Shown: positions 21,331 through 63,675 of the stretch, piece after piece
Numbering within the stretch: position 1 is the first letter of the stretch
Layout: the number at the start of each line of letters is the position of its first letter
Virus record (IMG/VR): IMGVR_UViG_3300045988_153198
Length of the DNA stretch: 64,000 bases
Direction: 5' to 3' (one strand)
Source: a virus
The notes under the pieces: model-generated
Told to the model about the DNA's origin: nothing
Seen by the model: the letters and a program-made list of their open reading frames with translations, nothing else
Database searches by the model: none
Made by a program: the position numbers and the translations under genes

Positions 21331-21347
21331 GAGTATAACCTTAACAG
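21331..21347 (-). promoter_or_regulatory. conserved 17-nt motif, copy c (CTGTTAAGGTTATACTC)
   Basis: Abuts the endolysin stop codon. Sense orientation matches the local genes. Confidence 0.6.
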
Positions 21348-23084
21348 TTACGCTCGTTTAAGATATTTGCTTGATACGAAACCTGTAATTGTTCCATACT
21401 GTACTAAATACCAGTTTGTTCCATTTACAGCAGTATAATATCCATAGCAATGTACAGTTCCACCACAAGGAATAGTAGTGATAACTTTAAAGCTTGTGCC
21501 AGCACCAGTTCTGAGATTTAATGCATCAGTTGTTTTATATGTACCAGCATAAGCAGATTTTTTAGATTCTGCATAAGATAATTTGTTTGATGAAGATGCA
21601 TTAGAGGAATTAGATGTAGATTCCTTTTTTACATATCCAGAATGAACAAATCCATACTTACCGTTATATTTAATATAATACCAAACAGAACCATCAGAAG
21701 CTTTCTGAGAAGCACATACACCAATTCTAGTTCCTTTCTTTAAAGGACTAAATGAACAAGTTTTGTTTTTTGTTCCAGCCCATGTTCTCACATTTAACTC
21801 ATCTGTTGTAATGCCATACCACTGTACAGTTTTACTTAATGTACCACTGGTTTGAGTATTATTAGATGGAGTAGAAGGAGCTGCTGGAGTAGAAGTATTT
21901 CCAGAAGAGCTGCTACTTGTTGCTTTACTTGAATATTTCGGTAAACAGAATCCTCTAATATATCTACCATTTACCGCAATTTCACGATATGCAACACGAT
22001 TATTTCTATTTCCTTCAATAACAGTAATTGTATTTCCACTAACAGAAACTACAATACCTACATGGTCTGGATAACCTGTACAATCTCCAGCACCATTATC
22101 ATTCCAGTAATACATAATAATATCGCCAACTTTAGGTACATAAGCATCGTTTTCTTCCCAACGACCAAGTTTACGATATAACTCAATCATTGCTCCACAA
22201 CCACACTCAGTTGGCATAATATCAGTTAATCCGCACTGAATTGAAATAAAGCTGACAAATGTTGCACACCAAGCATCGGTATAAGTTACTTTATAACTTC
22301 TTGCCAATGGTTTATGTGCATTATATCCATCAATAATTTTTCTGTGAGAACCATCTGCTTCATTACAACCTAAATACTTCTTAGCTGTTTCGACAACTTT
22401 CTGTCTCAATTCATTTTCCGTCATAGTCTTACCTCCTGTAGTATTTGATGTTGAAGAAGTATGTAAATACTTCTTCAGTGAGTTGTAAACCATTTTCTGC
22501 CTTGATTTATATGCACCCACCTGATTACCTGTATCGGTTTGGCAAGCTGCATACAAATTGTCTAATGTATAAGGTTTCCTTGTTTTTGCGACAACTCTCT
22601 TCATTGCGGATAAACCACCTTGATGTCTAAAATTAGCACACATCATTTGTGCTGCCACATCGGTAACACCTAATGTTGCTGCTTCATCAATGTATTTCTG
22701 CATCTGAGAATCAATTAAAGAATCCTGACATTTAATGCCTACATTAGAACTGATAATTTTCTGAATACATTTAGCTTTTGCAGACCTTTTTGATAGCTTA
22801 TAAGTAGACCAATCTTTTGAATCCAAATCACTTCCAATACCAGCAGTATCTAATTTCTTAAACAAAGCTGAATCAGTAGTGCGAATAAGTTTCAAAAGTC
22901 TTTGGGCTTCAGTTGCATACCAAGCACCGCCACCAATTGTAATTGCGTGTTCTGAAGAAGAATTAGTATATGCTTCTGTGAAATCGTCATAACGAACACC
23001 GCCATATACCTGTCCTCCAGTTTCTACCGCATAAATGATTTTTCTAATTACTTCTTTTTGTGCATTTGTAAGATTTACAGACAT
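21348..23084 (-). CDS. endolysin: N-terminal lysozyme-like region + CHAP/NlpC-type amidase + two SH3b repeats (578 aa)
   Basis: CHAP-type DAWCATFVSF...YPDHVGIVVSVSGNTITVIEGN. Two SH3b-like repeats (LNVRTWAGT...WYYIKYNGKYGFVHSGYV and LNLRTGAGT...WYLVQYGTITGFVSSKYL) separated by Ser-rich linkers. Confidence 0.75.
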   Translation of the reverse strand: MSVNLTNAQKEVIRKIIYAVETGGQVYGGVRYDDFTEAYTNSSSEHAITIGGGAWYATEAQRLLKLIRTTDSALFKKLDTAGIGSDLDSKDWSTYKLSKRSAKAKCIQKIISSNVGIKCQDSLIDSQMQKYIDEAATLGVTDVAAQMMCANFRHQGGLSAMKRVVAKTRKPYTLDNLYAACQTDTGNQVGAYKSRQKMVYNSLKKYLHTSSTSNTTGGKTMTENELRQKVVETAKKYLGCNEADGSHRKIIDGYNAHKPLARSYKVTYTDAWCATFVSFISIQCGLTDIMPTECGCGAMIELYRKLGRWEENDAYVPKVGDIIMYYWNDNGAGDCTGYPDHVGIVVSVSGNTITVIEGNRNNRVAYREIAVNGRYIRGFCLPKYSSKATSSSSSGNTSTPAAPSTPSNNTQTSGTLSKTVQWYGITTDELNVRTWAGTKNKTCSFSPLKKGTRIGVCASQKASDGSVWYYIKYNGKYGFVHSGYVKKESTSNSSNASSSNKLSYAESKKSAYAGTYKTTDALNLRTGAGTSFKVITTIPCGGTVHCYGYYTAVNGTNWYLVQYGTITGFVSSKYLKRA

Positions 23085-23158
23085 AACAATCCTCCTTTAA
23101 CACAATAAAAAAGGACGATGCTTTATCAGCACCATCCTCTTAAAACTGTTATTTTATG

Positions 23159-23551
23159 TTACTTACCAGAAGCTTTGTTGCTATCAATTACTTTTCTGAG
23201 TTCAACCAAAGCATCATCAATTGCATCATCAATGTATTTTGTCAATTCTGTCTGGTCAACAACTTTTGACAAAATAGGATATTCTTTATAAATTTCTGCA
23301 ATTACCTGAGAACGCTTAATACTTCCAGCTTTATTCCATTCTTCATAATCAACTTCTGCATCAGAAATCTTTTTAAGAATAACCTGTTTAATCTGAGCTT
23401 TAGCAATTTTAATTTTTTCATCATCACTTTTACTCAAATAGTCCTGTGTTTTCTTTACAATACCAACAATCAAACCAGCACACACCAGAATAGTAGTCCA
23501 GTTATCATTGATAATATTAAGAAAATTTTGTAATCCTGTAAGAAAATTCAT
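23159..23551 (-). CDS. membrane protein, holin candidate (130 aa)
   Basis: One TM segment (WTTILVCAGLIVGIV) followed by a charged tail. Lies upstream of the endolysin. Confidence 0.4.
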   Translation of the reverse strand: MNFLTGLQNFLNIINDNWTTILVCAGLIVGIVKKTQDYLSKSDDEKIKIAKAQIKQVILKKISDAEVDYEEWNKAGSIKRSQVIAEIYKEYPILSKVVDQTELTKYIDDAIDDALVELRKVIDSNKASGK

Positions 23552-23563
23552 ATATAAATCCTC

Positions 23564-23983
23564 CTATCCTTGAGCATCAGAAGAACTTGATTCTTCTGAA
23601 TTATTTTGACTATTCTCAATATCCAATTGAGCCATAGCGGTTTCATACACAATTCCACCAGATGTATTTTCAGCTTTAGATTTACTGTAGTACCCCCAAA
23701 TAATAGGAGCTAAAGCTACAGGAATACCAATTAATACATACATAGAACTTGTATCCATAAGTTTTAACATTGCGTATTCACAGAATATTACAATTTCAAC
23801 ACATAATAGAATAATTCCCAAGAGAACAATTTTACTCATAGAAAAAGTTTTCTTCTTAGGCTTACCCTTTTTTCGTTCTTCTTTTAATTCTGCTTTTCGC
23901 TTTTTGGTTAAATTTGCTGCCCTGATTCTTTTCATCTGAGCATTAAATTCTTTTTCTGAAAGATATTTCATTGGAATCACCAC
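23564..23983 (-). CDS. two-TM membrane protein in the lysis cassette (139 aa)
   Basis: Basic N-terminus, TM segments IVLLGIILLCVEIVIFC and VLIGIPVALAPIIWGYY. Confidence 0.4.
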   Translation of the reverse strand: MVIPMKYLSEKEFNAQMKRIRAANLTKKRKAELKEERKKGKPKKKTFSMSKIVLLGIILLCVEIVIFCEYAMLKLMDTSSMYVLIGIPVALAPIIWGYYSKSKAENTSGGIVYETAMAQLDIENSQNNSEESSSSDAQG

Positions 23984-23985
23984 CT

Positions 23986-24222
23986 TTAACTTTCAGACTT
24001 GTCCTTTTCAATATCCTTATCTAAATCTTCCTGTTCTTTTGCAATAGCCTGTTCATACTGAAGTTTATCAATTTCATACTGCCTTTTTGAAGCAGCATGA
24101 GCTTCCTGTAAAAATGTACTTAAAATAGGCTCTATTACAAAAGGTGGAAGTCCAGATGTATTAATAATTTCTGCCAACTTTGTTTTGGTTTCTTCTATAA
24201 CCAATGTAACAGGTTTTTTCAT
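23986..24222 (-). CDS. hypothetical 78-aa protein
   Basis: Tightly packed ORF with an RBS. No family recognised. Confidence 0.45.
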   Translation of the reverse strand: MKKPVTLVIEETKTKLAEIINTSGLPPFVIEPILSTFLQEAHAASKRQYEIDKLQYEQAIAKEQEDLDKDIEKDKSES

Positions 24223-24239
24223 ATTGTCACCTCGCCTTA

Positions 24240-27200: not shown

Positions 27201-27851
27201 TGATTCCAAATCATAAACAGCAATAGTTCTTAATATATTTCCATTTTCATCTGAAGCAGAATCAAATACAAACAAACAACCAATTTCTTCAGCAATTTGT
27301 TGTAATGCATCATAAATAGAAACACCATCAAAAGAAAATGTTCTTTGTATATTTGCGATTGTAGAATCTACATGAGTTATTTTATAATGCGGTGCTTTCT
27401 CTAATATACGATGTAAAAGAGAAGCTTCGGGATTTTTCTCTCTATATAATACTGTAGGAATTTTATAATCATCTCTAGCAATATCATCTTCTGTATTGAT
27501 TTCAATTGTATATAGTTGTATTTGAGACAATTCTGCTTGTCCAAGTCGAGTGCAATATACGGTTTTTACTGTTTCATTCGATTCATCCAACTCAACTCTT
27601 AATTGAAACCATATATCTTGTTCTTGCCACCAAGCTAATCGGAAATCTTTTATCTTATTCCATAAATGATTCTTTTTCCCATTAAGATATTTATTTACAT
27701 TAAAAGTAATTTCTGCTGCGTCTTTCATAGAATCTTTAATAGAAATTCCAGATGCAACAATTAATCCTAATTTCTTTCCTGTTTTTGTTGCCAGAATAAG
27801 AGTTGGATTTTCAGGACGATTAGTGGTATCAAAACGTATTTTCATTCCCAT
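24240..27851 (-). CDS. tail-associated protein (Tal-like minor structural protein, 1203 aa)
   Basis: Lies directly after the Dit-like gene and downstream of the TMP. Contains a central zinc ribbon (CNQCGYRGEFTGSCPKCKS) and a long beta-rich C-terminus. Confidence 0.5.
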   Translation of the reverse strand: MGMKIRFDTTNRPENPTLILATKTGKKLGLIVASGISIKDSMKDAAEITFNVNKYLNGKKNHLWNKIKDFRLAWWQEQDIWFQLRVELDESNETVKTVYCTRLGQAELSQIQLYTIEINTEDDIARDDYKIPTVLYREKNPEASLLHRILEKAPHYKITHVDSTIANIQRTFSFDGVSIYDALQQIAEEIGCLFVFDSASDENGNILRTIAVYDLESNCNQCGYRGEFTGSCPKCKSTNINEGYGIDTSIFISSDECGADIQFTTDTDSVKNCFKLEAGDDLMTATIRNCNPNGTDYIWYFSDDVKEDMSDELLEKIESYNTLYQTYQSDYVASIDSSYISQYNTLVKKYQKYNSDLQEVSIPIKGYSALMTAYYDTVDMGGYLKSMLMPDSKMGDTTAAEQAKLLTVANISPVAVSDISNISVATADNVVLAMAKIVVDSRYRVKVNTSSLSSERWNQVWTGNFVVTNYSDEEDTAISDTVSIVVNDDYKTYVQQKIEKSLNKGNTEDVSISGVFKKEYNDFCSELKKYCLDTLNSFHDACQSCIDILIEQGVADSKTWSGKTPNLYSDLYTPYFNKLKAIEAEMSVRQKEIDSVLGVYDENSVLKTDGFQTLLLKEKNKIQDTLNFQKYLGENLWLEFCSFRRDDKYSNDNYVSDGLSNVELFKKALEFIEVANKEIYKSAELQHSISASLKNILTIEKFKPLRKHFEVGNWIRVQVDDTVYKLRLLEYEIDFDDFEKLSSVQFSDVTKIPSGITDIQDVLSKASSMATSYDSVKRQAAQGENSNNVLKSWFENGLDATNTKIVGGADNQTQTWDEHGMLFRRYNDITDSYDKTQLKIINSTLAITDDDWETTKTAIGNFYYNDPITGELKNAYGINAEVVIGRLLLGKELGIYNESGNLTFDNNGFQVTNGVDTVSINPNASSIFNIKNKDGNVLSFDKSGNLVVVGEITATKLTLLDDTEINAEHISGLSDVAFSGKYSDLEGTPSLDAYIKTDGTIGKTPSDGATGFSVSSIGLLQASNAIIYGELYSSKGKIANWDIGNGYLRYKDKNNLYSGIGSSGIAMAFYAGGSLADGSDAKFRVGHDGKLYSNGAVVMGEITATDFKVQDSIYFYVNSYGIDSYSKLMYLNLYDGAVGSHYFELVIGKESNTLLTESSASEFGSLRFGRVKIPSRLVIGRNKIDVEDKLDDLENRIKKLEGK

Positions 27852-27863
27852 AACTAATCCTCC

Positions 27864-28673: not shown

Positions 28674-28681
28674 TTTAATTT

Positions 28682-28999: not shown

Positions 29000-29069
29000 A
29001 TAAACCACCTTACAAAAATAGGGTTGCACACAATATAGTGGCAACCCATTTACAAAATACTATATATTG

Positions 29070-46300: not shown

Positions 46301-46317
46301 GCGTATAACTTTAATAG
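46301..46317 (-). promoter_or_regulatory. conserved 17-nt motif, copy b (CTATTAAAGTTATACGC)
   Basis: Starts 3 nt after the capsid gene stop codon and 27 nt before the next start codon. Confidence 0.6.
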
Positions 46318-46320
46318 CTT

Positions 46321-49433: not shown

Positions 49434-49441
49434 ATATCCTC

Positions 49442-50995: not shown

Positions 50996-51011
50996 GCATA
51001 TCTCACCTCCT

Positions 51012-52793: not shown

Positions 52794-52807
52794 ATAAGCA
52801 ACACCCC

Positions 52808-53800: not shown

Positions 53801-53849
53801 TACGACACCACCTTTCCATAAAAATAAGAGTGAATATAAAAATTCACTC

Positions 53850-55193: not shown

Positions 55194-55226
55194 TTTCTCA
55201 GTCCTTTCATTGCATAATTTTAATAG

Positions 55227-55316
55227 CGGAAGCGAAGGGATTCGAACCCCTATGCCGATTCACACCGACCTATCTGTTTTCAGGACAGACCTCTTCACCA
55301 GTTTGAGTACACTTCC
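55227..55316 (-). tRNA. tRNA-Ser: tRNA-Ser(UGA), class II
   Basis: Acceptor GGAAGTG/CGCTTCC, anticodon stem TCTGT/ACAGA, loop CCUGAAA (C rather than U at position 33), long variable arm, T-loop GGTTCGAATCC. Confidence 0.7.
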
Positions 55317-55321
55317 ATAAA

Positions 55322-55396
55322 CATCCGTATTCGGATTCGAACCGAAAACAACCGCTTTAGAAGAGCGATGCTCTAATTCCATTGAGCTATACGGAT
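55322..55396 (-). tRNA. tRNA-Arg: tRNA-Arg(UCU)
   Basis: Acceptor ATCCGTA/TACGGAT, D arm GCTC..GAGC, anticodon loop CUUCUAA. Confidence 0.8.
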
Positions 55397-55399
55397 ACA

Positions 55400-55471
55400 A
55401 GCATTATATGGGAATCGAACCCATATCGTCTGATTGGAAATCAGAAATCATAGCCTTTAGACCAATAATGC
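55400..55471 (-). tRNA. tRNA-Gly: tRNA-Gly(UCC)
   Basis: Acceptor GCATTAT/ATAATGC, anticodon stem TCTGA/TCAGA, loop UUUCCAA. Confidence 0.8.
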
Positions 55472-55474
55472 ATA

Positions 55475-55546
55475 AGCTCCCACACAGATTCGAACTGTGA
55501 CTAATTGATTACAAGTCAAACGTGCTACCATTATCACTATAGGAGC
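55475..55546 (-). tRNA. tRNA-Thr: tRNA-Thr(UGU)
   Basis: Acceptor GCTCCTA/TGGGAGC, anticodon loop CUUGUAA, T arm CACAG-TTCGAAT-CTGTG. Confidence 0.75.
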
Positions 55547-55551
55547 AATAG

Positions 55552-55623
55552 TGGATGTGAAAGGACTTGAACCTTCGATATACTGGTTAAAAGCCAGTTG
55601 CCATACCGCTTGGCTACACATCC
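55552..55623 (-). tRNA. tRNA-Lys: tRNA-Lys(UUU)
   Basis: Acceptor GGATGTG/CACATCC, anticodon stem ACTGG/CCAGT, loop CUUUUAA. Confidence 0.8.
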
Positions 55624-55627
55624 AAAA

Positions 55628-55700
55628 TGGAACTGGTGGGATTTGAACCCACAACCTTCTGCTTGCAAAGCAGTTATTCTCCCATTAGAACTACAATCCC
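55628..55700 (-). tRNA. tRNA-Ala: tRNA-Ala(UGC)
   Basis: Acceptor GGGATTG/CAGTTCC with a G3:U70 wobble (the Ala identity pair). Anticodon loop UUUGCAA. Confidence 0.8.
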
Positions 55701-55703
55701 ATA

Positions 55704-55786
55704 CGGAAAGCATTAGAATCGAACTAAATACCTTTCGGTACGCACTGTTTAGCAGACAGGCTCTATACCATATAGATTTACTCTCC
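55704..55786 (-). tRNA. tRNA-Ser: tRNA-Ser(GCU), class II
   Basis: Acceptor GGAGAGT/GCTTTCC, anticodon loop CUGCUAA, long variable arm GTGCGTACCGAAAGGTAT. Confidence 0.7.
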
Positions 55787-55790
55787 AAAA

Positions 55791-55862
55791 GGTGTATTGA
55801 AGGAATTGAACCCTCAACCATAGAATCACAATCTAGCGTTTTACCATTAAACTAAATACACC
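55791..55862 (-). tRNA. tRNA-His: tRNA-His(GUG) with encoded G-1
   Basis: An extra 5' G pairs with C73. Acceptor GTGTATT/AATACAC, D stem GTTT/AAAC, anticodon loop UUGUGAU. Confidence 0.8.
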
Positions 55863-55866
55863 ATAA

Positions 55867-55939
55867 TGACTTCGGAGGGAATCGAACCCATCAATCCCAC
55901 CTTGAAAGAGTGGTGTCTTAACCATTTGACCACGAAGCC
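55867..55939 (-). tRNA. tRNA-Glu: tRNA-Glu(UUC)
   Basis: Acceptor GGCTTCG/CGAAGTC, anticodon loop CUUUCAA. Confidence 0.8.
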
Positions 55940-56014
55940 ATAATTAAGGTCATTGCCTACCTTAATGCAGTAGGTTTTCATCTGCTATAACTCCGCAAAG
56001 TTATACCATTATTA

Positions 56015-56087
56015 ATGCGGAAGTGAGATTCGAACTCACGACACCCAGCTTATGAGACTGGTAAGCTAACCGCTGCTTTATTCCGCA
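56015..56087 (-). tRNA. tRNA-Met: tRNA with CAU anticodon (Met, or Ile if lysidine-modified)
   Basis: Acceptor TGCGGAA/TTCCGCA, D arm AAGC..GCTT, anticodon stem CCAGT/GCTGG, loop CUCAUAA. Confidence 0.75.
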
Positions 56088-56095
56088 ATAGAAAT

Positions 56096-56164
56096 AGAAT
56101 GTGTCAGATTTGAACTGCTCCCCATGACCCCAAATCACGTATGCTACCATTACACCACACACTC
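56096..56164 (-). tRNA. tRNA-Pro: tRNA-Pro(UGG)-like, short with a weak T stem
   Basis: Acceptor GAGTGTG/CACATTC, anticodon stem CGTGA/TCATG, loop UUUGGGG (G37). Only 69 nt, and I can pair just 3 bp of the T stem. Confidence 0.5.
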
Positions 56165-56199
56165 TAAAATAAAGGTTCTCATTATGTAGAGAAGCACAA

Positions 56200-56282
56200 T
56201 GCTGGTGACGAGATTTGAACTCGTACTGCTATATGCAATTGGGGCTTAAACCCAATGTGTCTGCCAATTCCACCACACCAGC
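56200..56282 (-). tRNA. tRNA-Leu: tRNA-Leu(UAA), class II
   Basis: Acceptor GCTGGTG/CACCAGC, anticodon stem TTGGG/CCCAA, loop UUUAAGC, long variable arm, T arm ACGAG-TTCAAAT-CTCGT. Confidence 0.8.
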
Positions 56283-56287
56283 AAATT

Positions 56288-56367
56288 AGTGAAAGAGAGG
56301 ATTTGAACCTCTACCTTCCGTTGTCTTATTCATAAATTCGGATATTCTACTTTTAAAATACTTTCAC
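56288..56367 (-). ncRNA. tRNA-like element with non-canonical core (possible pseudo-tRNA)
   Basis: Perfect acceptor GTGAAAG/CTTTCAC and T arm AGAGG-TTCAAAT-CCTCT. The 48 nt between them gave me no 5-7-5 anticodon arm or normal D arm. Confidence 0.35.
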
Positions 56368-56373
56368 TATAAG

Positions 56374-56454
56374 TGGGAGAGGTAGGACTTGAACCTACAA
56401 TGCCGAAGCCACGATTTTACAGACCGCTGCAATACCAATTCTGCTCACTCGCCC
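56374..56454 (-). tRNA. tRNA-Tyr: tRNA-Tyr(GUA), class II
   Basis: Acceptor GGGCGAG/CTCTCCC (one C:U mismatch), anticodon loop CUGUAAA, variable arm GGCTTCGGCATT. Confidence 0.75.
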
Positions 56455-56459
56455 ATAAA

Positions 56460-56531
56460 CAGGAAGTTAAGGATTCGAACCCTAATCTTACAGTTTTGGA
56501 GACTGTTGTGTTTCCATTACACCAACTTCCT
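56460..56531 (-). tRNA. tRNA-Trp: tRNA-Trp(CCA)
   Basis: Acceptor AGGAAGT/ACTTCCT, D arm GTGT..ACAC, anticodon stem ACAGT/ACTGT, loop CUCCAAA. Confidence 0.8.
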
Positions 56532-56536
56532 ATAAG

Positions 56537-56609
56537 CTCCCCCAACAGGACTTGAACCTGTGACATTCTGATTAACAGTCAGACGCTCTACCAACTGAGC
56601 TATAAGGGA
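56537..56609 (-). tRNA. tRNA-Asn: tRNA-Asn(GUU)
   Basis: D arm GCTC-AGTTGGTA-GAGC, anticodon stem TCTGA/TCAGA, loop CUGUUAA. Confidence 0.8.
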
Positions 56610-56658
56610 ATAATTAGAATGAAAACATCCAACTTTTATTGAACTACATTCTAATAAG

Positions 56659-56730
56659 CGACTCTATTGGGAATCGAACCCAAATCTTCCGAGAGACAGT
56701 CGGATATAATTGCCTTTATACCATAGAGCC
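56659..56730 (-). tRNA. tRNA-Asp: tRNA-Asp(GUC)
   Basis: Acceptor GGCTCTA/TAGAGTC, anticodon stem TCCGA/TCGGA, loop CUGUCUC, T arm TTGGG-TTCGATT-CCCAA. Confidence 0.75.
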
Positions 56731-56841
56731 AAAGTCGGGTGTATGTACACCCTCATTAAGAAAGGTTAAATATGAATGTAAGAAGTAACCACAAGAATCA
56801 ACAGGTGGTTTTATATAAACAGTTTAACTGCTTATAACAAA

Positions 56842-57156: not shown

Positions 57157-57250
57157 TGGTATAACCTCCTTCTTACTTAAATTTCATGGGAATTTTTTAA
57201 AACTACACAAATTAGCTTGTTTTCCCCCTAATGAACATTTCAAAAAATTT

Positions 57251-57275
57251 AAAAGCCCTTAAAACAAGGGCTTTT
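57251..57275. terminator. hairpin terminator after the RNA polymerase gene
   Basis: Stem AAAAGCCCTT/AAGGGCTTTT with a 5-nt loop. A/T runs on both sides make it potentially bidirectional. Confidence 0.7.
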
Positions 57276-57292
57276 AAAAATTCTTAATTTTG

Positions 57293-57309
57293 GCATATAA
57301 CCTTAATTG
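57293..57309 (-). promoter_or_regulatory. conserved 17-nt motif, copy d (CAATTAAGGTTATATGC)
   Basis: Lies 8 nt after the RNAP stop codon and upstream of the 57251-57275 hairpin. Confidence 0.6.
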
Positions 57310-57317
57310 TAAGAGTT

Positions 57318-60167
57318 TTATAAAATTTTTTGACCCGACTTCATTTTGTTTCTTCTTGCTCTTTGAGTCTCTAATTTACGATTTTTTCTATATTCTTCAT
57401 AACAATCTGGACATCTGCAAGTATTATTATTTTTTGTCAACACATCAAACCATTCTCCGCAATCTACACACTGAATACTTTTATGATTATTTTTACATCC
57501 ATTTTCTTTTATATTTTCATAAATGATATTTCCATAACATAACCATAATGCAACTTTGTGTTTACTTTTCTTAATTCCGTATAAATATTTTACAAGTATA
57601 TCGGCTATTTCTGATTCACTATATCCAAATTCAGACAAAGCTGTTTTTATTTCATTTGAAATATTTTTATATAATAAATCCTGTACTATTTGAGAATGTT
57701 TCATTAAATCAGGAGAAAGATTTTCTTTATAATTTAGATTGATTTGAAAATGATGTTTGCTACTCAACTCACAATATTTTACAATCAAGGGGTCAGTCTT
57801 TTCCTTTATTAATTTTCCTCTATCAGTAAAATCAACACGACATTCAATATCGGGATTGTGCATAAGCAACTTATAATCTATAGCTCCTAATTTTAATGAC
57901 CTACAATTAATTCTCGGATTGGGGATAATGCTATTTAGCTTGTTTACAAAACTTGCATTTATATTTGAAACCTGTACTTCATCCTTATCTTTTGCATATT
58001 TGAAAAAATGAGGAACATTCTCTTTGGTGTGAGCAATGATTTTTTCATGAACATCTTTTGGACGTTGCGGTTTATATAAAGTTTTCGCATAATCAATGAC
58101 AAAGTTATTTTCCATACAAAGTAGTTTAACAAGGTCAATAGCTTCTTGTTTTTCCTCTGGTGTTCCTGAAATAAATACTTCACTGTTCCAAATTTTAGAA
58201 ATATTATTACTATACAATCCAATATTTCCACCTGTAAAAGCAGCCACCAATCCATTATAAATATTCTCAGATGTTAGAAGAGTGGGGGATGCTTTTCGCA
58301 TATTGTAATACAAAGGAACAATCCCTTTCATATTTCTTTCTGCGACTTCAATAAATTTCCTGTCAGACACCACAAGAGACTTATCTCCATCTACATCAAA
58401 CTGAAGAATTTTACTAATTAAGTCATGGCAACTGGTATAAATGGCATCAGTATCAAACCATTCTCTTATAAGTTTTTGACGTTCATTTTTACAATACGCA
58501 ATATTTTTTCTTATTGCGTGTTCTTTGTAAAGATGAGGAGAACGTAAACAATCCAACTTATCCGATTTTCTAAACAACCAACAAAATACTTCTTGGTCAG
58601 CCAATAATCCTTCAGGGTCTTTTATTCCCTGAAACCAATATTGACAAGCTGCATAAAAATCAGGAAGTAAAAAAGTATATTTTCCATAAATCTGTAATTT
58701 TCCAGACTTATACTGTTTTATCATGCTATCTTTAGTATTCCTCAGTTGTGTTTTTACATATTCGTCATTCAATAGGTCAGGATATAACTCTACAGACTTT
58801 TGAAACGAATTTTTATGTAAATTATAAGGGGTAATACCAAATGCATCTTTAATGTTCTCAACAGAAGAACAAAGATTTTGCAATTTATTGATAGATGGTT
58901 TTGCAATTTCCAATATCTCCTCATCAGTAATATCAGTTAATGTCTGAAGCATTTGATAATTGATTTTTGCATTTCTTATTCTATCCTCTTCAAGATTAGT
59001 ATATCCAGCAGTACAATGATATTTTTTATAATACTCTTTGTATTGCTCCCATGAATCATAATACTTCCACATCTTAAATTGTGATTTTGTAAATATGATT
59101 TCAATGCCTTCTGTGATAATATCATGTTCTTTTCCATAAATGTCCTTGATGATAGAAGAACAACCATTAACTTCTATAAAATGAACATAATCAAATTTTC
59201 CAAGTAGTCCTTTTACCCAAGGTAGGCGAACCATTCTGTTTTTACCCATATGAGGTAACATCATTCCAGCTCCATCGGTATGAGTAATTGGCACATAATC
59301 TGATACACGCTTGATAGAATAGTCTGCATCATCTACCAAGTCATATGTTCCAAACACATTTGTCTCAAAATCATCAATAACAATCGTCTTGTCAATATCA
59401 AATTCTTCCCATGCATCTGTAGCAGAGTTAGTTAATGCGGTGTATGCCAAATGCTTATTAGGATTATTACCACCTTTTGAATTAATGACATCTATTGTTA
59501 GTCCACACATAATTGTTTTTTCATATTTTTTCCATGTTGATTCTTTAATGAATACAGTTTTCTTTGTTCGAATTTGACCAGCAGAAGAAGTAAAGTAAAT
59601 ATACTTTTCTCCTTTATATGTAAATCCGTAATATATTAAATCTTTGATTATATCAAAATAATATACCTGAACAACCATAAAATCTTCTGACAGTTCATTA
59701 GGTTGTGCGTGTATCATTCTTGTAAAAGAAGAATCAAACACAGAAATTATTTTTTTATCAGAAACATCATTTTCCTTTAATTCACGAATATGATGCTTTC
59801 CATCAGAAACAATATTTGCATTGACTTTATTTTCCAGAAGTTGCAAAAGAGTATCTTTGCTGTACTTGATTTTTCTGTTTTTCATGGCAATTAATTCTTT
59901 AAGGTTGACATATTCATTTCCAAGAGATTGAATACGTTCTGTATCTTCGCCCCAACTTGAATAATCATATTCAGATTTTAACATTGTATCCAAATCACTT
60001 TGCTCAATTCCGTATTTAAAAAGTTCACTGGCTATATCTTTTGATTTTTGCACCAAAGCATTTCTTTCGGAACGCAATTTGTGATTTAACCAGTGTAGAT
60101 GAGCTTCGTGATTACTATAAAAGTTACCTGTATCCACACTATATATATTGATTTGAGTATCTAACAT
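57318..60167 (-). CDS. single-chain two-barrel RNA polymerase of the YonO / cellular-RdRP family (949 aa)
   Basis: Ordered motifs YFTSSAGQIRTKK, THTDGAGMM, RLPWVKGLLG, CLRSPHLYKEH and FDVDGDKSLVV (DxDGD encoded at 58383-58397). C-terminal CVDC...CPDC zinc ribbon and basic tail. Confidence 0.7.
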   Translation of the reverse strand: MLDTQINIYSVDTGNFYSNHEAHLHWLNHKLRSERNALVQKSKDIASELFKYGIEQSDLDTMLKSEYDYSSWGEDTERIQSLGNEYVNLKELIAMKNRKIKYSKDTLLQLLENKVNANIVSDGKHHIRELKENDVSDKKIISVFDSSFTRMIHAQPNELSEDFMVVQVYYFDIIKDLIYYGFTYKGEKYIYFTSSAGQIRTKKTVFIKESTWKKYEKTIMCGLTIDVINSKGGNNPNKHLAYTALTNSATDAWEEFDIDKTIVIDDFETNVFGTYDLVDDADYSIKRVSDYVPITHTDGAGMMLPHMGKNRMVRLPWVKGLLGKFDYVHFIEVNGCSSIIKDIYGKEHDIITEGIEIIFTKSQFKMWKYYDSWEQYKEYYKKYHCTAGYTNLEEDRIRNAKINYQMLQTLTDITDEEILEIAKPSINKLQNLCSSVENIKDAFGITPYNLHKNSFQKSVELYPDLLNDEYVKTQLRNTKDSMIKQYKSGKLQIYGKYTFLLPDFYAACQYWFQGIKDPEGLLADQEVFCWLFRKSDKLDCLRSPHLYKEHAIRKNIAYCKNERQKLIREWFDTDAIYTSCHDLISKILQFDVDGDKSLVVSDRKFIEVAERNMKGIVPLYYNMRKASPTLLTSENIYNGLVAAFTGGNIGLYSNNISKIWNSEVFISGTPEEKQEAIDLVKLLCMENNFVIDYAKTLYKPQRPKDVHEKIIAHTKENVPHFFKYAKDKDEVQVSNINASFVNKLNSIIPNPRINCRSLKLGAIDYKLLMHNPDIECRVDFTDRGKLIKEKTDPLIVKYCELSSKHHFQINLNYKENLSPDLMKHSQIVQDLLYKNISNEIKTALSEFGYSESEIADILVKYLYGIKKSKHKVALWLCYGNIIYENIKENGCKNNHKSIQCVDCGEWFDVLTKNNNTCRCPDCYEEYRKNRKLETQRARRNKMKSGQKIL

Positions 60168-60190
60168 AATTTCACCTTTCTTGCTATTAA

Positions 60191-60207
60191 GCGTATAACC
60201 TTAATAG
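60191..60207 (-). promoter_or_regulatory. conserved 17-nt motif, copy a (CTATTAAGGTTATACGC)
   Basis: Lies between the stop of 60212..60394 and the RNAP start. Here it forms an 8-bp hairpin CTATTAAG-gttatacg-CTTAATAG. Confidence 0.6.
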
Positions 60208-60211
60208 TTAA

Positions 60212-60394
60212 TTATAATTCATACATTTCTTCCTCTTCACACATATCATTATAATCTTGTGCAAATTCTTCATAACTATCTCCATCAGTATTCAACACAC
60301 CAGAACGAAAAGTGCGTTTATCTTCTGGAGGGTAAAAATCTCGTTCTGATAATTCATAATAACTATCAGAAATTTTATTTGCTAAAGTATCCAC
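60212..60394 (-). CDS. small acidic protein (60 aa)
   Basis: GTG start 8 nt after AAAGGAG, and 3 nt after the upstream stop codon. Confidence 0.45.
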   Translation of the reverse strand: MDTLANKISDSYYELSERDFYPPEDKRTFRSGVLNTDGDSYEEFAQDYNDMCEEEEMYEL

Positions 60395-60397
60395 ATT

Positions 60398-61282
60398 CTA
60401 ATCTCCTTTGATTCCAATTTTTTGTTTTTTATTTGCTATTTCAGTAATCCAGTATGATTCTGAATCAGTGAGTAGATAATCACGCTCTCGTTTATAGGAA
60501 TTACAAAATATAGTATGATTGGTTTTCCATTTTACTTTTCCATCGTCAGTTATATATTTTGTTCTTCCAATTTCCTCAAACTGAATCAAATGTAATTCAT
60601 CCCTGAGACAATTTACAATTTTTCCAAATGTGCGTACAGACACTCCCAATTCTTCAGCCATATCTTTATAATAATCATTATAAGCTTCAGGAAATTGTAT
60701 TTGCTTTTCCAGAATATCTTCATCTAATCTATACTGATTAGACCTTCGCATAATCGACATTCGTAAATAAGCAAATACCAACAATAACGAAAAACTGTTT
60801 AAATACACATCTTTAGGATTACCCTGATAATTCATAATAGCTTTTATCTCGTCAAGATAAATAATAGCAAATCTATTATGATTATTTTCTTGTGCAGCAC
60901 TAACTGTGTCAAAAGAAGCTTCTACAAATTGTTCCCAAATAGGAGCAGTACCTTTACTTGTTTTCGTAAACACATCTTCTGGATATGTTAAATACCCCAA
61001 GTCTTTCAAGTCACTAATTACACCAAGTAATTTATCATTGATACGTCCTTTATTCCTGTTGGGCTTTTTATTGAACCAATGTATCATTGCATTGATTGAA
61101 AAATATAAACAACTGTCTAATCCTCTTCGAAACATAAAAAATGAATAAGCTGCAACACGCATGACATCCATATCCTTGTTTAAGATAATAGAAGATGGGA
61201 TAGTAATATACTTCCCAGCATCCCCTGTTAATTGCACAGGTATGTATTCACTTTTTGTTTCAGCAATGTTAATCACCTCCAA
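60398..61282 (-). CDS. hypothetical protein, possible replication initiator/DNA-binding protein (294 aa)
   Basis: First gene downstream of the operator/iteron region. The start codon is uncertain (TTG 61282 or GTG 61276). No motif-level identification. Confidence 0.35.
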   Translation of the reverse strand: MEVINIAETKSEYIPVQLTGDAGKYITIPSSIILNKDMDVMRVAAYSFFMFRRGLDSCLYFSINAMIHWFNKKPNRNKGRINDKLLGVISDLKDLGYLTYPEDVFTKTSKGTAPIWEQFVEASFDTVSAAQENNHNRFAIIYLDEIKAIMNYQGNPKDVYLNSFSLLLVFAYLRMSIMRRSNQYRLDEDILEKQIQFPEAYNDYYKDMAEELGVSVRTFGKIVNCLRDELHLIQFEEIGRTKYITDDGKVKWKTNHTIFCNSYKRERDYLLTDSESYWITEIANKKQKIGIKGD

Positions 61283-61345
61283 TCGCCAAGAAAGATAATA
61301 TATTTCACTATCAAATAATCACATTGTAGGTAAAACGCAATAGCT

Positions 61346-61362
61346 GGTACAAATCTTGTACC
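61346..61362. promoter_or_regulatory. operator-like palindrome O1 (GGTACAA-ATC-TTGTACC)
   Basis: Perfect 7-3-7 inverted repeat. The 18-mer AGCTGGTACAAATCTTGT recurs at 61385-61402. Confidence 0.65.
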
Positions 61363-61388
61363 TGCTTTTTCTCAAGGTATGAAAAGCT

Positions 61389-61405
61389 GGTACAAATCTT
61401 GTCAC
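61389..61405. promoter_or_regulatory. operator-like site O2 (GGTACAAATCTTGTCAC)
   Basis: Second copy, with two changes in the right arm. A looser third copy, GGTCAAAAATCTTGTTGCC, lies at 61475-61493. Confidence 0.55.
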
Positions 61406-61519
61406 GTTTTTGCAGTTCTAAACATATAAGATACCTATTACAATAAGAATAGTTATCTCTCTGGCGAGAGATGAGGTCAAAAATCTTGTTGCCATGTGAC
61501 ATTAAAAGTGATGCCTAAA

Positions 61520-61557
61520 ATTATTATACGAGATTTTTCTCAAATTTAGGAAGTAAT
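61520..61557 (-). promoter_or_regulatory. conserved bipartite promoter-like element (copy B) reading leftward into the early operon
   Basis: Minus-sense ATTACTTCCTA-N13-TCTCGTATAATAAT. The three operator-like sites lie between it and the first gene. Confidence 0.55.
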
Positions 61558-61581
61558 CAATGTAAAGTAATCAAAGTATTT

Positions 61582-61774
61582 GATGAATAGTTAAGAATGA
61601 ATAGATACTTAACGAATAGATACTTATTGGATACTTTATGAATAACTTCGAAAATGATTGAAAATAACGGTAAAAATCATATTGCTTTATTTTGTGCAAA
61701 ATCGAATTAGACGGTAAAAATTTAGAAAGTATTAAAATTAAAGTAAAATATAAATTAACGGAAAGAATTAACGG
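61582..61774. repeat. iteron-like short direct repeats in AT-rich DNA (candidate origin)
   Basis: GAATAGATACTTA occurs twice (61599-61611 and 61614-61626). AACGGTAAAAAT / ACGGTAAAAAT occur at 61667 and 61711. ATTAACGG occurs at 61754 and 61767. Confidence 0.5.
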
Positions 61775-61860
61775 TAGAAGCAAAAATAAAGCTTTATTTT
61801 AAATACTTTTTAATAAGGATTCTGTTAAATAAAATTCTCTGGCAGAGGATTAAAATATAC

Positions 61861-62400
61861 TTGTAGTTAGAATGTAGTTGATATTGGATTGTTTCATATG
61901 ATTAATTTGAGCTATTTGAATTGGTTCTGGTAAGAGAGATAGAGGAAGAATAAAAGAGGGATAATAATATTCTGGATATTAAGTTTGGATATTTGGAACT
62001 ATTTAAGAGTGTTGAAATGGGATTAAATTAGTATTATAAATTAGGCATTTTAGATAGGATAAGATAAGAGGATATTTGTTAGGCTTGAAATAGAATGAGA
62101 TTAGATTGGTATATTGATTGTAGTGTAAATAGGTTAAATTGAATTGTAATTTGGAATATGATTCAGGAAAAACAGATGGTTTCTGATAGATAATTTGGTA
62201 AATAAGAGAGTAAGAGATGAGTTTGTACCGTTGATTGTACCGTTGTGCATAAAGATATATGTTGATATGGTAAAGGGAGAATGTTGGATTGTATGTTGAG
62301 ATAATGTTAGGTTATATGTTGATGATTTTTAGTAATTTGGGATGATTTAGAATGATTTAGAATGAAAGATAAGTGTAAAAATTTTTTTGGTTGGGAAGAG
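61861..62400. other. C-depleted, G/A/T-only block
   Basis: My manual count is about 15 C in 540 nt, against abundant G. No credible ORF. Confidence 0.85.
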
Positions 62401-62580
62401 TTTTATCAGACAGTCGGCTGCTGGTCGGCTCAAATCGAAAAATATTTGTAAAATAGCCCCCTACCCCCTTATTTTAAGGATTTAATTTTTTCAATGTGAA
62501 AGACTGTAATTTTTTCACATTCATTTTATATAAATACCCCCTCCAATAGTATAGTAAAATGTTTCATGTAGTATTCATAA

Positions 62581-63240
62581 CTATATGTATAACAAATATA
62601 GAAGTTTTCAGAAAATAATAACGATTATTATTTTATTCTTTCCAGCTCAAAAAATTTATATAGATACTTCCATAACCCCACAAATTAAACCCCTTTACAC
62701 CCTCCACCCCCTTCCAAACTTTCCAGAACTCCACCCACTCCCACATAAAAAAGCAGCTAAAACCCACAAAAAACTCCTATTTTTCCATACTTTCCCCCAC
62801 TTTTATATAAATATAATCCCATATAATACCATACAACCCCACAAATACACCCAAACAAGCCCACAAACAACTCTATAAACTCCACTTTATACCCTTATAC
62901 AGTCCACCACTCCACCCCATACCATACCCCATAAACCCAAACAATAAAGCAATTATATTTTCTTTTCTTCTTTTCTCTTTTCCTTCTTTCCAGCTCCACC
63001 CTTGAAGCCCTTTTATATCCCTTGTATGCTGCCTTATATCCCTTTTATATCATTGTACAACCTTATACACCTATACAACCCTTATTATATACCCTTATAC
63101 CCCTTTAAAAGCCTTTAAAGCCCTATACAGTCAATACAACCCCATAACCCTATATAATATACATTAAAGCAATAAAAGCCCTTTAAAGCTCAAATAAACC
63201 CCATAGAAAAGAAAAGCAGAAACAAACTATATATAATAAT
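62581..63240. other. G-depleted, C/A/T-only block (mirror of 61861-62400)
   Basis: My manual count is about 30 G in 660 nt, against abundant C. Many CC(C)TT(T)TATA(C/T) short repeats. The only ORF there is low-complexity. Confidence 0.85.
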
Positions 63241-63303
63241 CTGGAAAGAATAAAAGCAGAAAAGCAGCTCTAAAAATAAATTGAAAAAAATATAAATTTG
63301 TAG

Positions 63304-63332
63304 TTGACAACTACATAAAAGCATGATAATAT
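63304..63332 (+). promoter_or_regulatory. sigma-A-type promoter P1
   Basis: TTGACA (63304-63309), 17-nt spacer, TAATAT (63327-63332). Confidence 0.65.
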
Positions 63333-63454
63333 AAAGCTACAAACAAACAAGACAACGCAAGAAAACAAAGCGAAGTTTTGAAGCACCTTGAAAATATCAT
63401 ATAAAAGCAGTTGAAAAGTACAAAAAACTTTTTCAAAAAAGTTAAAATAACTAC

Positions 63455-63483
63455 TTGACAACTACATAAAGATATGATAGTAT
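63455..63483 (+). promoter_or_regulatory. sigma-A-type promoter P2 (duplicate of P1)
   Basis: TTGACA (63455-63460), 17-nt spacer, TAGTAT (63478-63483). The flanks TTGACAACTACATAAA..ATGATA.TATAAAG.TACAAA are shared with P1. Confidence 0.65.
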
Positions 63484-63658
63484 AAAGGTACAAAGAACAA
63501 AGCGAAGCAATCAAGCGAAGCGAAGTTGTTTGTAAAACCTTTGAACCTTGATAATTTAATAAGTGCCTGAAGTAGTCCGTATAAAGTGTGACTTGTCCAC
63601 TTTAGAAAGTAACGCTTCGGGAAAGTGAATATTCCTTTTCCTTTTATCTTTTTACTAA

Positions 63659-63675
63659 CTGATAAGGTTATACAC
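63659..63675 (+). promoter_or_regulatory. conserved 17-nt motif, copy e (CTGATAAGGTTATACAC), plus strand
   Basis: In sense orientation for the plus-strand gene at 63845. Its first 8 nt are complementary to CTTATCAG about 85 nt downstream. Confidence 0.55.

Follow-up and report, generated by a model that had tools for sequence, protein, structure and literature searches.

A strand-specific sequence motif in the 64-kb stretch of phage DNA that we analysed (the window) is real and phage-specific, and it is distinct both from box2, an element downstream of yonO homologues, and from SPBRE, the repressor element of Bacillus phage SPβ. By analogy it most resembles the repressor stoperators of mycobacteriophages, and the reading that we favour, tentatively, is that its copies are oriented binding sites of a putative phage regulator that would block transcription, as a roadblock or operator layer of the stoperator type. 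An earlier sequence-only reading correctly described the motif as non-random, strand-specific and intergenic and correctly linked it to gene expression; its interpretation is overall partly supported.

Sequence and distribution of the motif

All five reported copies of the 17-nt motif were recovered in the window at the same positions and strands. Allowing up to two mismatches, these five matches compare with 0.21 expected, and none of 100 dinucleotide shuffles reached five. The full conserved element is 20 nt long, TAACTATTAAGGTTATACAY (TAACTnTTAAGGTTATACry). Its 10-nt core alone, with one mismatch allowed, showed no enrichment in the window (11 found versus 9.6 expected), so the signal is carried by the full-length element. 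A matrix scan of the window and 6 kb of its own contig returned seven sites that score no less than 25.6 bits, whereas the second-ranking group starts at 10 bits and the best scores of shuffled sequences range from 9 to 22 bits; sites of at least 25 bits were taken as true. The five copies and the terminators beside two of them are as follows.

60191..60210, minus strand: motif copy TAACTATTAAGGTTATACGC, 31.4 bits, between a 60-aa gene and the YonO-type polymerase gene
57293..57312, minus strand: motif copy TTACAATTAAGGTTATATGC, 25.9 bits, between the polymerase gene and a canonical terminator
46301..46320, minus strand: motif copy AAGCTATTAAAGTTATACGC, 25.6 bits, 3' of a YonB-family (capsid-like) gene
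21331..21350, minus strand: motif copy TAACTGTTAAGGTTATACTC, 29.7 bits, its TAA being the endolysin stop codon, followed by a terminator
63656..63675, plus strand: motif copy TAACTGATAAGGTTATACAC, 29.9 bits, in the leader of the rightward early operon
57248..57278, minus strand: intrinsic terminator, 14-bp stem and T-run, between the polymerase gene and an HU-like gene
about 21303..21325, minus strand: intrinsic terminator GGAGGGTGAA/TTCACCCTC and T-run, 3' of the endolysin gene and motif

The surroundings of the copies also agreed with the earlier description. Four lie within about 10 nt of an upstream stop codon: that of the capsid-like gene (3 nt), the 60-aa gene (4 nt), the polymerase gene (8 nt) and the endolysin gene (CHAP and SH3 domains), which abuts its copy. 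A ribosome-binding site (RBS) and ATG follow the copies at 60191 (23 nt) and 46301 (27 nt), and canonical hairpin terminators follow two others, one of them 14 nt after the 57293 copy. The fifth lies in a leader downstream of twin sigma-A promoters, 166 nt from the second. In sister strains the 46301 site reads TTAAGG.

Across the same phage at least 24 sites were found in about 130 kb, with bimodal matrix scores. The sense orientation claimed for the window copies extends to 23 of these 24 sites, both divergent arms included (binomial P = 1.5e-6), and nearly all sites lie in short intergenic gaps, the upstream stop codon often lying within the motif. Most copies stand directly 5' of the RBS of genes inside long co-oriented arrays, at a distance of 4-24 nt. 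The early/DNA-metabolism arm carries about one site per 2.5 kb, and the late genes carry two in about 50 kb, 3' of the capsid-like gene and of the last lysis gene. The single antisense site, an orphan, is fully conserved.

The phage is a human-gut phage related to SPβ. In viral collections the exact 17-mer is restricted to this phage group (20 viral stretches). Metagenomic contigs with multiple matches belong to the same group, and singletons were either small pieces of the same phage or unrelated contigs, the number and flanking bases of the latter looking like chance. Relatives whose proteins are only 56-70% identical carry an identical core. The motif accompanies the lineage of polymerases that share at least 57% identity with that of the window, and the copy after the polymerase gene is also kept in relatives whose polymerase is 57-70% identical.

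Phage polymerase, box2 and host-type promoters

The features that bear on transcription initiation are these.

57318..60167, minus strand: YonO-type single-chain two-barrel RNA polymerase, 949 aa, matching PF05183 (Pfam RdRP)
57218..57234, minus strand: box2 TCATTAGGGGGAAAACA, present once in the window and found family-wide downstream of yonO homologues
63304..63332, plus strand: early sigma-A promoter 1, TTGACAACTACA...TGATAATAT, belonging to the SPBRE-like promoter family
63455..63483, plus strand: early sigma-A promoter 2, a duplicate of promoter 1

The polymerase is 43% identical to SPβ YonO and 52% to that of Clostridium phage D-1873; with its PF05183 match and YonO homology it is not a T7-like enzyme. 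In SPβ, transcription by YonO is confined to the late operon, whose 37 genes are served by a single start site (PMC5467207). Box2, conserved throughout the YonO family, separates the polymerase gene from the late genes and is similar to the sequence at the mapped SPβ start site; by this family-wide presence and likeness, box2 rather than the motif appears the best candidate for a YonO-type promoter. Likeness between the motif and box2, which are only about 60 nt apart 3' of the polymerase gene, did not exceed chance: it ranked at the 57th percentile in the window and, in some relatives, reached about the top 3% at best.

The early/DNA-metabolism arm contains at least nine strong host-type promoters resembling SPBRE. 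The twin sigma-A promoters go with a 102-nt tandem duplication. In all four independent cases in which a strong sigma-A promoter and the motif share one gap, the motif lies downstream (+2, +29, +38 and +166 nt), with no ORF between. A good sigma-A promoter was located near only 3 of 22 motif sites, the rate at control positions being 6%; most SPBRE sites, which served as the positive control, have one nearby. Neither sigma-A hexamers nor a bipartite -35/-10 layout was found at the motif. Taken together, the nature of the enzyme, the late-only single-start transcription by SPβ YonO, the better placed box2, the density of the motif in an arm with host promoters and its position downstream of them weaken the earlier proposal of T7-style promoters, and the motif is probably not a promoter of the phage's own RNA polymerase.

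In SPβ, SPBRE is a multi-copy, sense-oriented repressor element bound by MrpR; this target, shown experimentally, adjoins the RBS and promoters of early operons and also occurs upstream of the yonP-yonO operon (PMC10516654). The motif shares the phage family, multiple copies (about 10 for SPBRE) and sense orientation, whereas SPBRE carries or adjoins sigma-A hexamers and motif sites are mostly without them. By sequence and position the counterpart of SPBRE here is a separate promoter family, TTGACAACTACATAGA...TGGTATCAT, which aligns with SPBRE (shuffle p = 0.0008), in contrast to the motif, which shows no sequence similarity to it (shuffle p = 0.71). Given these values, the distant YopR (MrpR-like) homologue encoded by the phage more probably binds the SPBRE-like family than the motif.

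RNA pairing and alternative readings

No shared fold was found around motif sites (mean folding z-score -0.5), and recognition at the level of DNA or protein, as preferred previously, is more likely. Hairpin potential accordingly does not stand as a general property; it does stand for a subset of sites with a conserved downstream complement, most sites being without a partner. One such complement, that of the leader copy, came from a repeat search.

63734..63750, plus strand: complement of the leader motif, GTGTAAAATCTTATCAG, 88% complementary

The leader motif and its complement are inverted relative to each other, with 58 nt inserted between them, and their pairing is kept in four strain haplotypes and one diverged relative through three compensatory double changes; the loop ranges from 21 to 150 nt, and the extended stem has G.U pairs. 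At the pre-polymerase copy, CTATTAAG pairs with CTTAATAG at 60184-60191, so that two inverted arms of 8 bp flank a spacer of 8 bp; strains differ in the 3' arm only by A to G changes opposite U, so that U.G pairs are kept. A site at 70 kb retains TTAAGG/CCTTAA pairing with its inner hairpin swapped between strains. The copy that follows the polymerase gene shows complementarity, in relatives, to the terminator's 5' arm, a layout like that of an attenuator. For the leader and pre-polymerase hairpins, compensatory changes and G.U pairs are suggestive of pairing at the RNA level.

It seems doubtful that the motif represents a second class of promoters for the YonO-type polymerase, comparable to the class II promoters of T7, with host polymerase covering only short units next to the divergent region and the phage enzyme starting at motif copies, ignoring hairpin terminators and taking over where host transcription stops. 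In T7, promoters are present ahead of the host terminator TE. A compact, contiguous, asymmetric, highly conserved, sense-oriented and intergenic motif near the RBS, free of sigma-A hexamers, phage-specific and tied to the polymerase lineage would suit such a role, and the conserved antisense orphan could drive a small RNA. Copies just 5' of the terminators ending the polymerase operon and lysis module would make sense for an enzyme that lacks the flap domain (PMC5467207); the SPβ late operon has many annotated stem-loops, and the YonO promoter is not defined in the literature (PMC5467207). Phage-polymerase promoters (T7 class II/III, and P23-45, where distinct motifs serve two single-subunit two-barrel polymerases; PMC10770324) are likewise compact, conserved, oriented, intergenic and present in many copies. 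Here, however, the polymerase is YonO-type, and SPβ YonO is limited to its 37 late genes from one start site, the only one mapped, at an element resembling the family-wide, single-copy box2, which the motif does not resemble beyond chance. The motif is concentrated in an arm already served by the nine or more host-type promoters, lies downstream of them in four of four cases, and would be redundant about 60 nt from box2 after the polymerase gene.

Less probable still is a function in RNA, in which the motif would be a single-stranded site in polycistronic transcripts where a phage RNA-binding protein or endoribonuclease shuts off, processes or attenuates early/middle messages, a complementary "anti-motif" masking it at key points. 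Lambda nut, RAT/PyrR sites and T4 RegA/RegB targets are sense-strand RNA signals in leaders or between genes, often just before terminators or RBSs and in some cases specific to early messages, and the proposed function may be compared with RegA/RegB or with TRAP/PyrR-type attenuation. Sense-only placement downstream of promoters and between stop codons and RBSs would fit, as would the compensated leader complement, the U.G-preserving pre-polymerase arm, the retained pairing at 70 kb and the attenuator-like layout in relatives. Nevertheless, most sites have neither partner nor shared fold, the left arm varies without compensation, and template-switch mutation can likewise maintain palindrome symmetry. 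The known signals are structured (boxB, RAT, PyrR loop) or very short (GGAG), whereas a 20-nt linear recognition site is unusual for RNA, and the fully conserved antisense orphan would be absent as a motif from sense RNA. No candidate RNA-binding protein or nuclease was found among the best 25 of 57 families and the small regulatory-region proteins. Improbable, finally, is any of three further roles. A terminator or attenuator of the phage polymerase would recall the conserved 26-nt terminator motif of the P23-45 two-barrel polymerases (PMC10770324) and suit the two late-operon copies, but copies before an RBS inside co-oriented arrays would silence those genes. A promoter for host polymerase redirected by a putative phage sigma factor or activator is opposed by the missing -35/-10 layout and by the lack of a strong sigma-factor match (84 ORFs, best 25 of 57 families). 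A tyrosine-recombinase-type site bounding modules would suit the 8-bp arms and spacer of the pre-polymerase site and the tyrosine-recombinase-fold proteins that the phage encodes, yet direct-repeat sites would delete the genes between them. Of the roles raised by the sequence-only reading, an RNA processing or stability site and a termination-type signal are still plausible.

Oriented sites and a proposed role in the prophage state

The stoperator-type reading is drawn from the census, the sense orientation, the intergenic and insulator-like placement, the order downstream of promoters, the general lack of a promoter at the sites themselves, the early-arm density, the phage specificity, the match to L5-type stoperators and the precedent of SPBRE in the phage family. 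To our knowledge, stoperators are documented only in actinobacteriophages, as 13-mers. Those of L5, bound by gp71 in cluster A mycobacteriophages, number more than 20; they are asymmetric, occur in promoters and in short gaps between genes, and have an orientation that is correlated with transcription and required for repression (PMC9283540). The motif likewise has many asymmetric sites that track transcription in both arms; some immediately follow a promoter, and most have none. Unlike L5 stoperators, it is 20 rather than 13 nt long, a subset of its sites has a conserved complement, and it belongs to a large SPβ-like phage with its own RNA polymerase in a Firmicutes gut bacterium; no L5-type repressor was found here.

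Several arguments weigh against a roadblock. Core identity across relatives exceeds the conservation usual for immunity specificities, a roadblock just 5' of an intrinsic terminator would be superfluous, and the compensatory changes and G.U pairs at the leader and pre-polymerase hairpins are suggestive of RNA-level pairing. Nor was a motif-binding protein found: the small proteins of the regulatory regions showed no DNA-binding domain, and the MrpR-like protein fits the SPBRE-like family better. One neighbouring gene product deserves mention.

60398..61282, minus strand: 294-aa Rep-initiator-like protein, predicted dual winged-helix fold (pLDDT 91)

Its structure matches RepE, Rep-iteron and RctB proteins and it co-occurs with the motif lineage; judged from the model, replication initiation is its most likely role, and the motif matrix found no sites in the repeat block adjoining its gene.

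The motif also follows units that are likely to be expressed in lysogeny. The Rep-like operon is separated from the polymerase gene by one site. Another site follows the MrpR-like gene at a distance of two genes, that gene having a strong, motif-free promoter of its own. The antisense site and a sense site, each pointing outward, flank a block in which a GmrSD-like gene occurs together with three strong promoters. The MrpR-like gene, an integrase-family match and SPβ-like synteny suggest a phage with a prophage state. We infer that a protein binds the motif and thereby blocks elongation, and we assume which units stay on. In the prophage, possibly a plasmid-prophage, a few units would be kept on, namely the operon of the Rep-like initiator, the gene for the MrpR/YopR-like repressor and the block with the GmrSD-like defence gene. 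The putative regulator would act on transcribing RNA polymerase in an orientation-dependent manner, which would in effect make the motif a termination-type signal that depends on a factor. On its way out of these units, or after leaking from SPBRE-like early promoters, host RNA polymerase would run into a bound motif that points the way it travels and be halted before the lytic genes, including the YonO-type polymerase gene, which two sites bracket; in the main early leader, the motif and its complement would act as a double, inverted site. Late genes would need few sites, given their dependence on the phage polymerase, which probably starts at box2.

Extent, census and distribution of the motif

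The five intergenic copies described in a sequence-only reading were all recovered where it had placed them, on the same strands, as CTNTTAAGGTTATACNC with at most two mismatches; 0.21 copies were expected, and no dinucleotide shuffle gave five. The intergenic position and sense orientation claimed for them relative to the flanking genes also held for 5/5 window copies. The motif was therefore retained as real, but its proposed length of 17 nt was not, as the conserved block extends over 20 nt (TAACTnTTAAGGTTATACry). Scanning the window plus 6 kb of its own contig (overlap 100% identical) with the position weight matrix of the motif yielded seven sites of at least 25.6 bits, with the runner-up at 10 bits, within the noise of shuffled sequences. 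The 10-nt core by itself was not enriched, which together with the gap between 25.6 and 10 bits indicates that the element is all-or-none at full length. The census was extended by 43.5 kb beyond the window, taken from a near-identical 130-kb genome, where 17 further sites were found and confirmed by another 21-kb stretch; this brings the total to at least 24 across about 130 kb, and the matrix scores are bimodally distributed. The strand specificity asserted for the first copies persisted in this larger set, in which 23 of the 24 sites lie on the gene-sense strand rather than on both strands alike (P = 1.5e-6).

Nearly all sites fall between genes or extend over a stop codon, the upstream stop often being the TAA within the motif itself, and the usual order is stop, motif, 4-24 nt, GGAGG and ATG. 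In the rightward arm the sites recur roughly every 2.5 kb; this arm encodes a RecD2-like helicase, an NAD-dependent ligase, NrdD, a glycosylase, NAD-salvage enzymes, an SSB and a methylase, while the late operon (~50 kb) holds two sites only. The sole full-strength copy in antisense orientation, which was located in loci of relatives (L-numbers), is kept in three strains. The gap that it occupies, 153 nt long, forms the left border of a block comprising three strong promoters together with a GmrSD-like gene, and in the sense RNA this copy would appear as a perfect "anti-motif."

Antisense motif copy (outside the window, ~71 kb on the window scale)
L387 3895, minus strand
L234 5232, plus strand
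L281 3999, plus strand

Relatives gathered around yonO homologues numbered 79 loci from genomes and 80 viral ones. Those whose polymerase is 57-70% identical to that of the window share the core TAAGGTTATA in orthologous places (right after the polymerase stop, often right before its start, and in the divergent-operon leader), whereas it was not found in the more distant YonO lineages among the collected loci. A search of these lineages for any comparable multi-copy motif was also negative, a weak test covering exact 10-mers present at least four times in the 10 kb flanking the polymerase gene on each side. In the entire viral collection, exact matches to the 17-mer AACTATTAAGGTTATAC are confined to 20 stretches, all from this phage group, and the metagenome contigs with multiple matches belong to the same group and come from human gut samples. 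Single metagenome matches came from short pieces of this phage or from unrelated contigs, and their number and flanking bases resemble chance. A host-encoded reader, i.e., a host protein recognizing the motif, was rejected given that no chromosomal use of the 17-mer appeared in the metagenomes, although this evidence is weak as it covers exact matches only. Searching the literature for the motif sequence returned nothing relevant, and within the literature searched the motif is undescribed.

The YonO-type polymerase and the box2 element

The T7-like nature proposed for the 949-aa polymerase (57318..60167, minus strand) was rejected on the basis of its match to the Pfam RdRP family PF05183 and its 43% identity to SPβ YonO; it is also 52% identical to a protein of Clostridium phage D-1873. 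Among the best 25 families listed for the 84 other ORFs, no strong match to a T7-type polymerase family was observed. YonO-type enzymes are single-chain relatives of the cellular multisubunit RNA polymerases. The genes downstream are syntenic with the SPβ late operon, with an equivalent of the HU-like yonN followed by the YonG, TerL, YonD and YonB families. [quoted passage not shown] 2017, PMC5467207); no later paper defining it was found in the literature searched.

A separate element, box2 (consensus aATcGyCTaTAAGGGAgA), lies 70-160 nt 3' of the polymerase stop in roughly 85 of the 107 non-redundant members of the family, ranging from Bacillus and Paenibacillus to Clostridia, usually directly after the terminator of the polymerase gene and ahead of the HU-like gene. 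In the window, it is box2, not the motif, that forms the sole element directly preceding the HU-tRNA-late array.

Positions of box2
57218-57234, minus strand: single copy in the window
NC_001884 about 61224-61246, minus strand: copy in the SPβ record, between yonO and yonN
Loci L003-L161: copies in the relatives

The SPβ YonO start site (genome coordinate 2225998) could be placed only by a primer bracket of 240 nt, derived from the primer-extension primers in the supplement of the SPβ paper and corresponding to positions 60330-60573 of the SPβ record. This bracket contains GATAATAGTCATTTATGAGGGTG, which is conserved in other Bacillus prophages and whose core CATTTATGA(A/G)GGT has just two occurrences on the SPβ late strand. 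Compared with SPβ's own box2 (GATAATCGTCATAAGGGAG), GATAATAGTCATTTATGAGGGTG agrees at 11 of 12 upstream positions, ranking in the top 0.6% of windows. This likeness at the mapped start site is suggestive and not proof, and box2, which occupies the position predicted for a YonO promoter, emerges as a concrete candidate for it.

The motif, when compared with the box2 matrix, scored between -5 and +4 bits in ungapped alignment; gapped alignment placed it at the 57th percentile for the window and, in some relatives, no higher than roughly the top 3%. The possibility of the motif being a box2 variant was hence rejected: CTAT-AAGG-A-ACAC is common to both by eye, but the resemblance is not significant, ungapped or gapped. 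Nor does the motif combine the two properties looked for in a YonO promoter, likeness to the SPβ start-site element and a place upstream of the late operon. A motif copy directly 5' of a tRNA gene was also considered as an indicator of promoter function and discarded, as ARAGORN gave no confirmation.

Several other features were recorded around the polymerase and its operon. The non-coding gap of 1.7 kb between yonN and yonK in SPβ contains long inverted repeats, CGGATAATAGTCATTTAT...ATAAATGGCTATTATCGG and CTAATGTTCATTTA...TAAATGAATATTAG, whose 5' arms harbor both copies of the SPβ start-site element (NC_001884 60380-60610, minus strand). Distant YonO lineages (loci L011-L025, L063 and L110) carry two same-stem hairpins after the polymerase stop, such as GTCCA/TGGAC twice, followed by a T-run; the resulting 1:2/3:4 versus 2:3 layout is attenuator-like and stands ahead of box2. 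The tRNA array separates the HU-like gene from the structural genes, and relatives have 1-8 tRNAs at this position. A DGR module was found downstream of the endolysin gene, and at the left end of the window transposition genes run on the opposite strand, with a TniQ-family match among the ORFs near them; these genes may represent an inserted mobile element or the phage end.

Other features of the window
55226-56730, minus strand: 15-16 tRNA genes
7707-20174, minus strand: DGR module
12519-20174, minus strand: 2551-aa DGR protein with Mtd_N domain
9475-11328, minus strand: 617-aa DGR protein with Mtd_N domain
7707-9086, minus strand: DGR reverse transcriptase
8854-8935: RT-18 RNA (RF03021), in the DGR module
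1356-4474, plus strand: transposase-like (phrog_310) and DNA-transposition-protein-like (phrog_296) genes

Host-type promoters, the Rep-like protein and candidate readers

At least nine strong sigma-A promoters belong to one family, sTAsTTGACAACTACATAGA...TGGTATcAT (the TTGACAACTACATAGA promoters), in which the -35 flank and the spacer are conserved and the -35 lies within the near-palindrome GTAGTTGACAACTAC.

SPBRE-like sigma-A promoters
63304-63332 and 63455-63483, plus strand: window
4472, 6765, 8041, 9832 and 16934: locus L387
6194: locus L290
2441: locus L292

This family aligns with the promoter-operator of SPβ known as SPBRE, the repeated element bound by MrpR (YopR), with a shuffle p of 0.0008 (0.05 for spacers alone), whereas the motif compared with SPBRE gave 0.71. 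A good sigma-A promoter was present near only 3 of 22 motif sites, and where promoter and motif share one gap, the motif was downstream in 4/4 independent cases, at +2 to +166 nt. The motif was consequently rejected as an SPBRE/MrpR operator, having neither sequence similarity nor promoter association, and the SPBRE-like promoters fit this role better. It was likewise dismissed as a host sigma-A promoter, since no conserved -10/-35 hexamers occur in or near it; the last position of its -10-like hexamer, a T for sigma-A, is unconserved. A 317-aa protein was recognized as a distant YopR/MrpR homologue (25% identity, 124 colinear residues, E = 3e-6), and its gene has a strong SPBRE-like promoter of its own. 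By analogy with MrpR of SPβ (PMC10516654), the target of this putative repressor is most likely the SPBRE-like promoter family.

The 294-aa Rep-like protein p294 (60398..61282, minus strand) adjoins the polymerase gene and co-occurs with the motif lineage. Its structure model (pLDDT 91) supports a dual winged-helix, Rep-like fold and matches RepE/Rep-iteron/RctB initiators. The motif sites are dispersed, without the clustering of direct repeats at an origin beside the rep gene that defines iterons, and in the block 62640-63240 beside the p294 gene the motif matrix peaks at -5 bits. Given the RepE/RctB-like fold and the absence of the motif from this adjacent repeat block, p294 was rejected as a motif reader acting through an iteron system, though it may bind the motif in some other way, and its modeled fold leads us to read it as a probable replication initiator adjoining an origin-like region. 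Between the divergent operons lies a 2.5-kb gene-poor region (61283-63845), which, especially at 62660-63200, holds a skewed block whose plus strand is almost without G, with TATACCCTTATAC-type repeats (TATAAGGG-type words on the minus strand). Because this region adjoins the Rep-like gene, it constitutes a candidate replication origin, or else a candidate pac region, a role suggested for yonP-yonR in SPβ. As regards other readers, no strong sigma-factor match or DNA-/RNA-binding candidate appeared in the families listed for the 84 ORFs, and the small regulatory-region proteins gave no convincing sigma factor or DNA-/RNA-binding domain.

Possible roles of the motif

The 22 solid sites showed a mean folding z-score of -0.5, with two below -2 and no common fold; the left arm of the motif varies without compensation, and at the gathering threshold Rfam returned only tRNAs and RT-18, so that neither a shared hairpin nor a curated RNA family was found for it. 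A complementary partner is conserved at a subset of sites only. Motif and complement surround an insert of 21, 24, 58 or 150 nt in the early leader, across strains and one diverged relative, and their pairing is kept through three compensatory double substitutions and G.U pairs. The hairpin preceding the polymerase gene shows exclusively A-to-G changes, opposite U; strains have exchanged the inner hairpin of the 70-kb site yet retain its TTAAGG/CCTTAA pairing; and in relatives the post-polymerase copy and the 5' arm of the terminator are complementary. There is thus real evidence of pairing at the partnered sites, whether in the RNA or through a palindrome maintained in the DNA. A "convergent pair" in locus L390, considered for distinguishing promoter from end-of-gene function, proved to be the leader inverted pair. 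A site acting at the RNA level would account for the compensatory pairings, but it leaves unexplained both the orphan antisense copy and the absence of a common fold, and we regard it as unlikely. Somewhat less doubtful, though still improbable, is the use of the motif by the YonO-type polymerase as a second class of promoter, which would explain the copies right before terminators as well as the orphan antisense copy; against it stand box2, the SPβ precedent and the promoter-then-motif order, all of which fit it poorly, and the motif-dense arm is already served by nine or more strong promoters of host type. Even taken together, a terminator specific to the polymerase, a redirected host polymerase and a recombinase site seem very improbable.

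The stoperators of L5-type mycobacteriophages are many asymmetric sites located in short intergenic spaces and promoter regions, whose orientation follows transcription and is required for repression (PMC9283540). The motif resembles them in the many genome-wide copies of one asymmetric site (at least 24 in about 130 kb), in its position in short intergenic gaps with orientation along transcription in both arms, and in its place directly downstream of a strong sigma-A promoter in four cases; the motif sites are without promoters of their own. As copy number, placement and orientation are those defining stoperators, we tentatively favor an orientation-dependent roadblock or operator layer, at somewhat less than even probability, for which we infer the binding, the blocking and the identity of the reader. 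A reader bound at the motif would block RNA polymerase moving in the direction of the motif. The fine-scale placement of the sites is in keeping with an insulating function: one site separates the Rep-like operon from the polymerase gene, another follows the polymerase gene, and one lies two genes after the MrpR-like gene; the antisense site and a sense site flank, pointing outward, the block with three strong promoters and the GmrSD-like gene; and the main early leader carries a double inverted site.

Under such a roadblock layer, a gut phage of SPβ type with a YonO-type polymerase, perhaps a plasmid-prophage, may employ a 20-nt site and a putative reader, with paired motif/anti-motif sites that would stand at key switches. 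If this is right, what is new is stoperator-like control outside actinobacteriophages, in a phage with a YonO-type polymerase. We consider it slightly better than an even chance that the motif represents either an independently evolved stoperator-like roadblock layer or the first YonO-family promoter, as a second class beside box2. The locus and its ~160 relatives provide two sharp candidate signals, the family-wide box2 and the lineage-specific 20-mer with its at least 24 copies, and box2 makes the YonO promoter question directly testable independently of how the motif is read. Should the motif be a promoter, it would give the first promoter consensus for the YonO polymerase family and a potential new orthogonal expression part. 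Should it be a roadblock, stoperator control would reach from mycobacteriophages to large Firmicutes gut phages, and the motif would show how a prophage insulates the gene of its own processive polymerase from neighbors that stay on.
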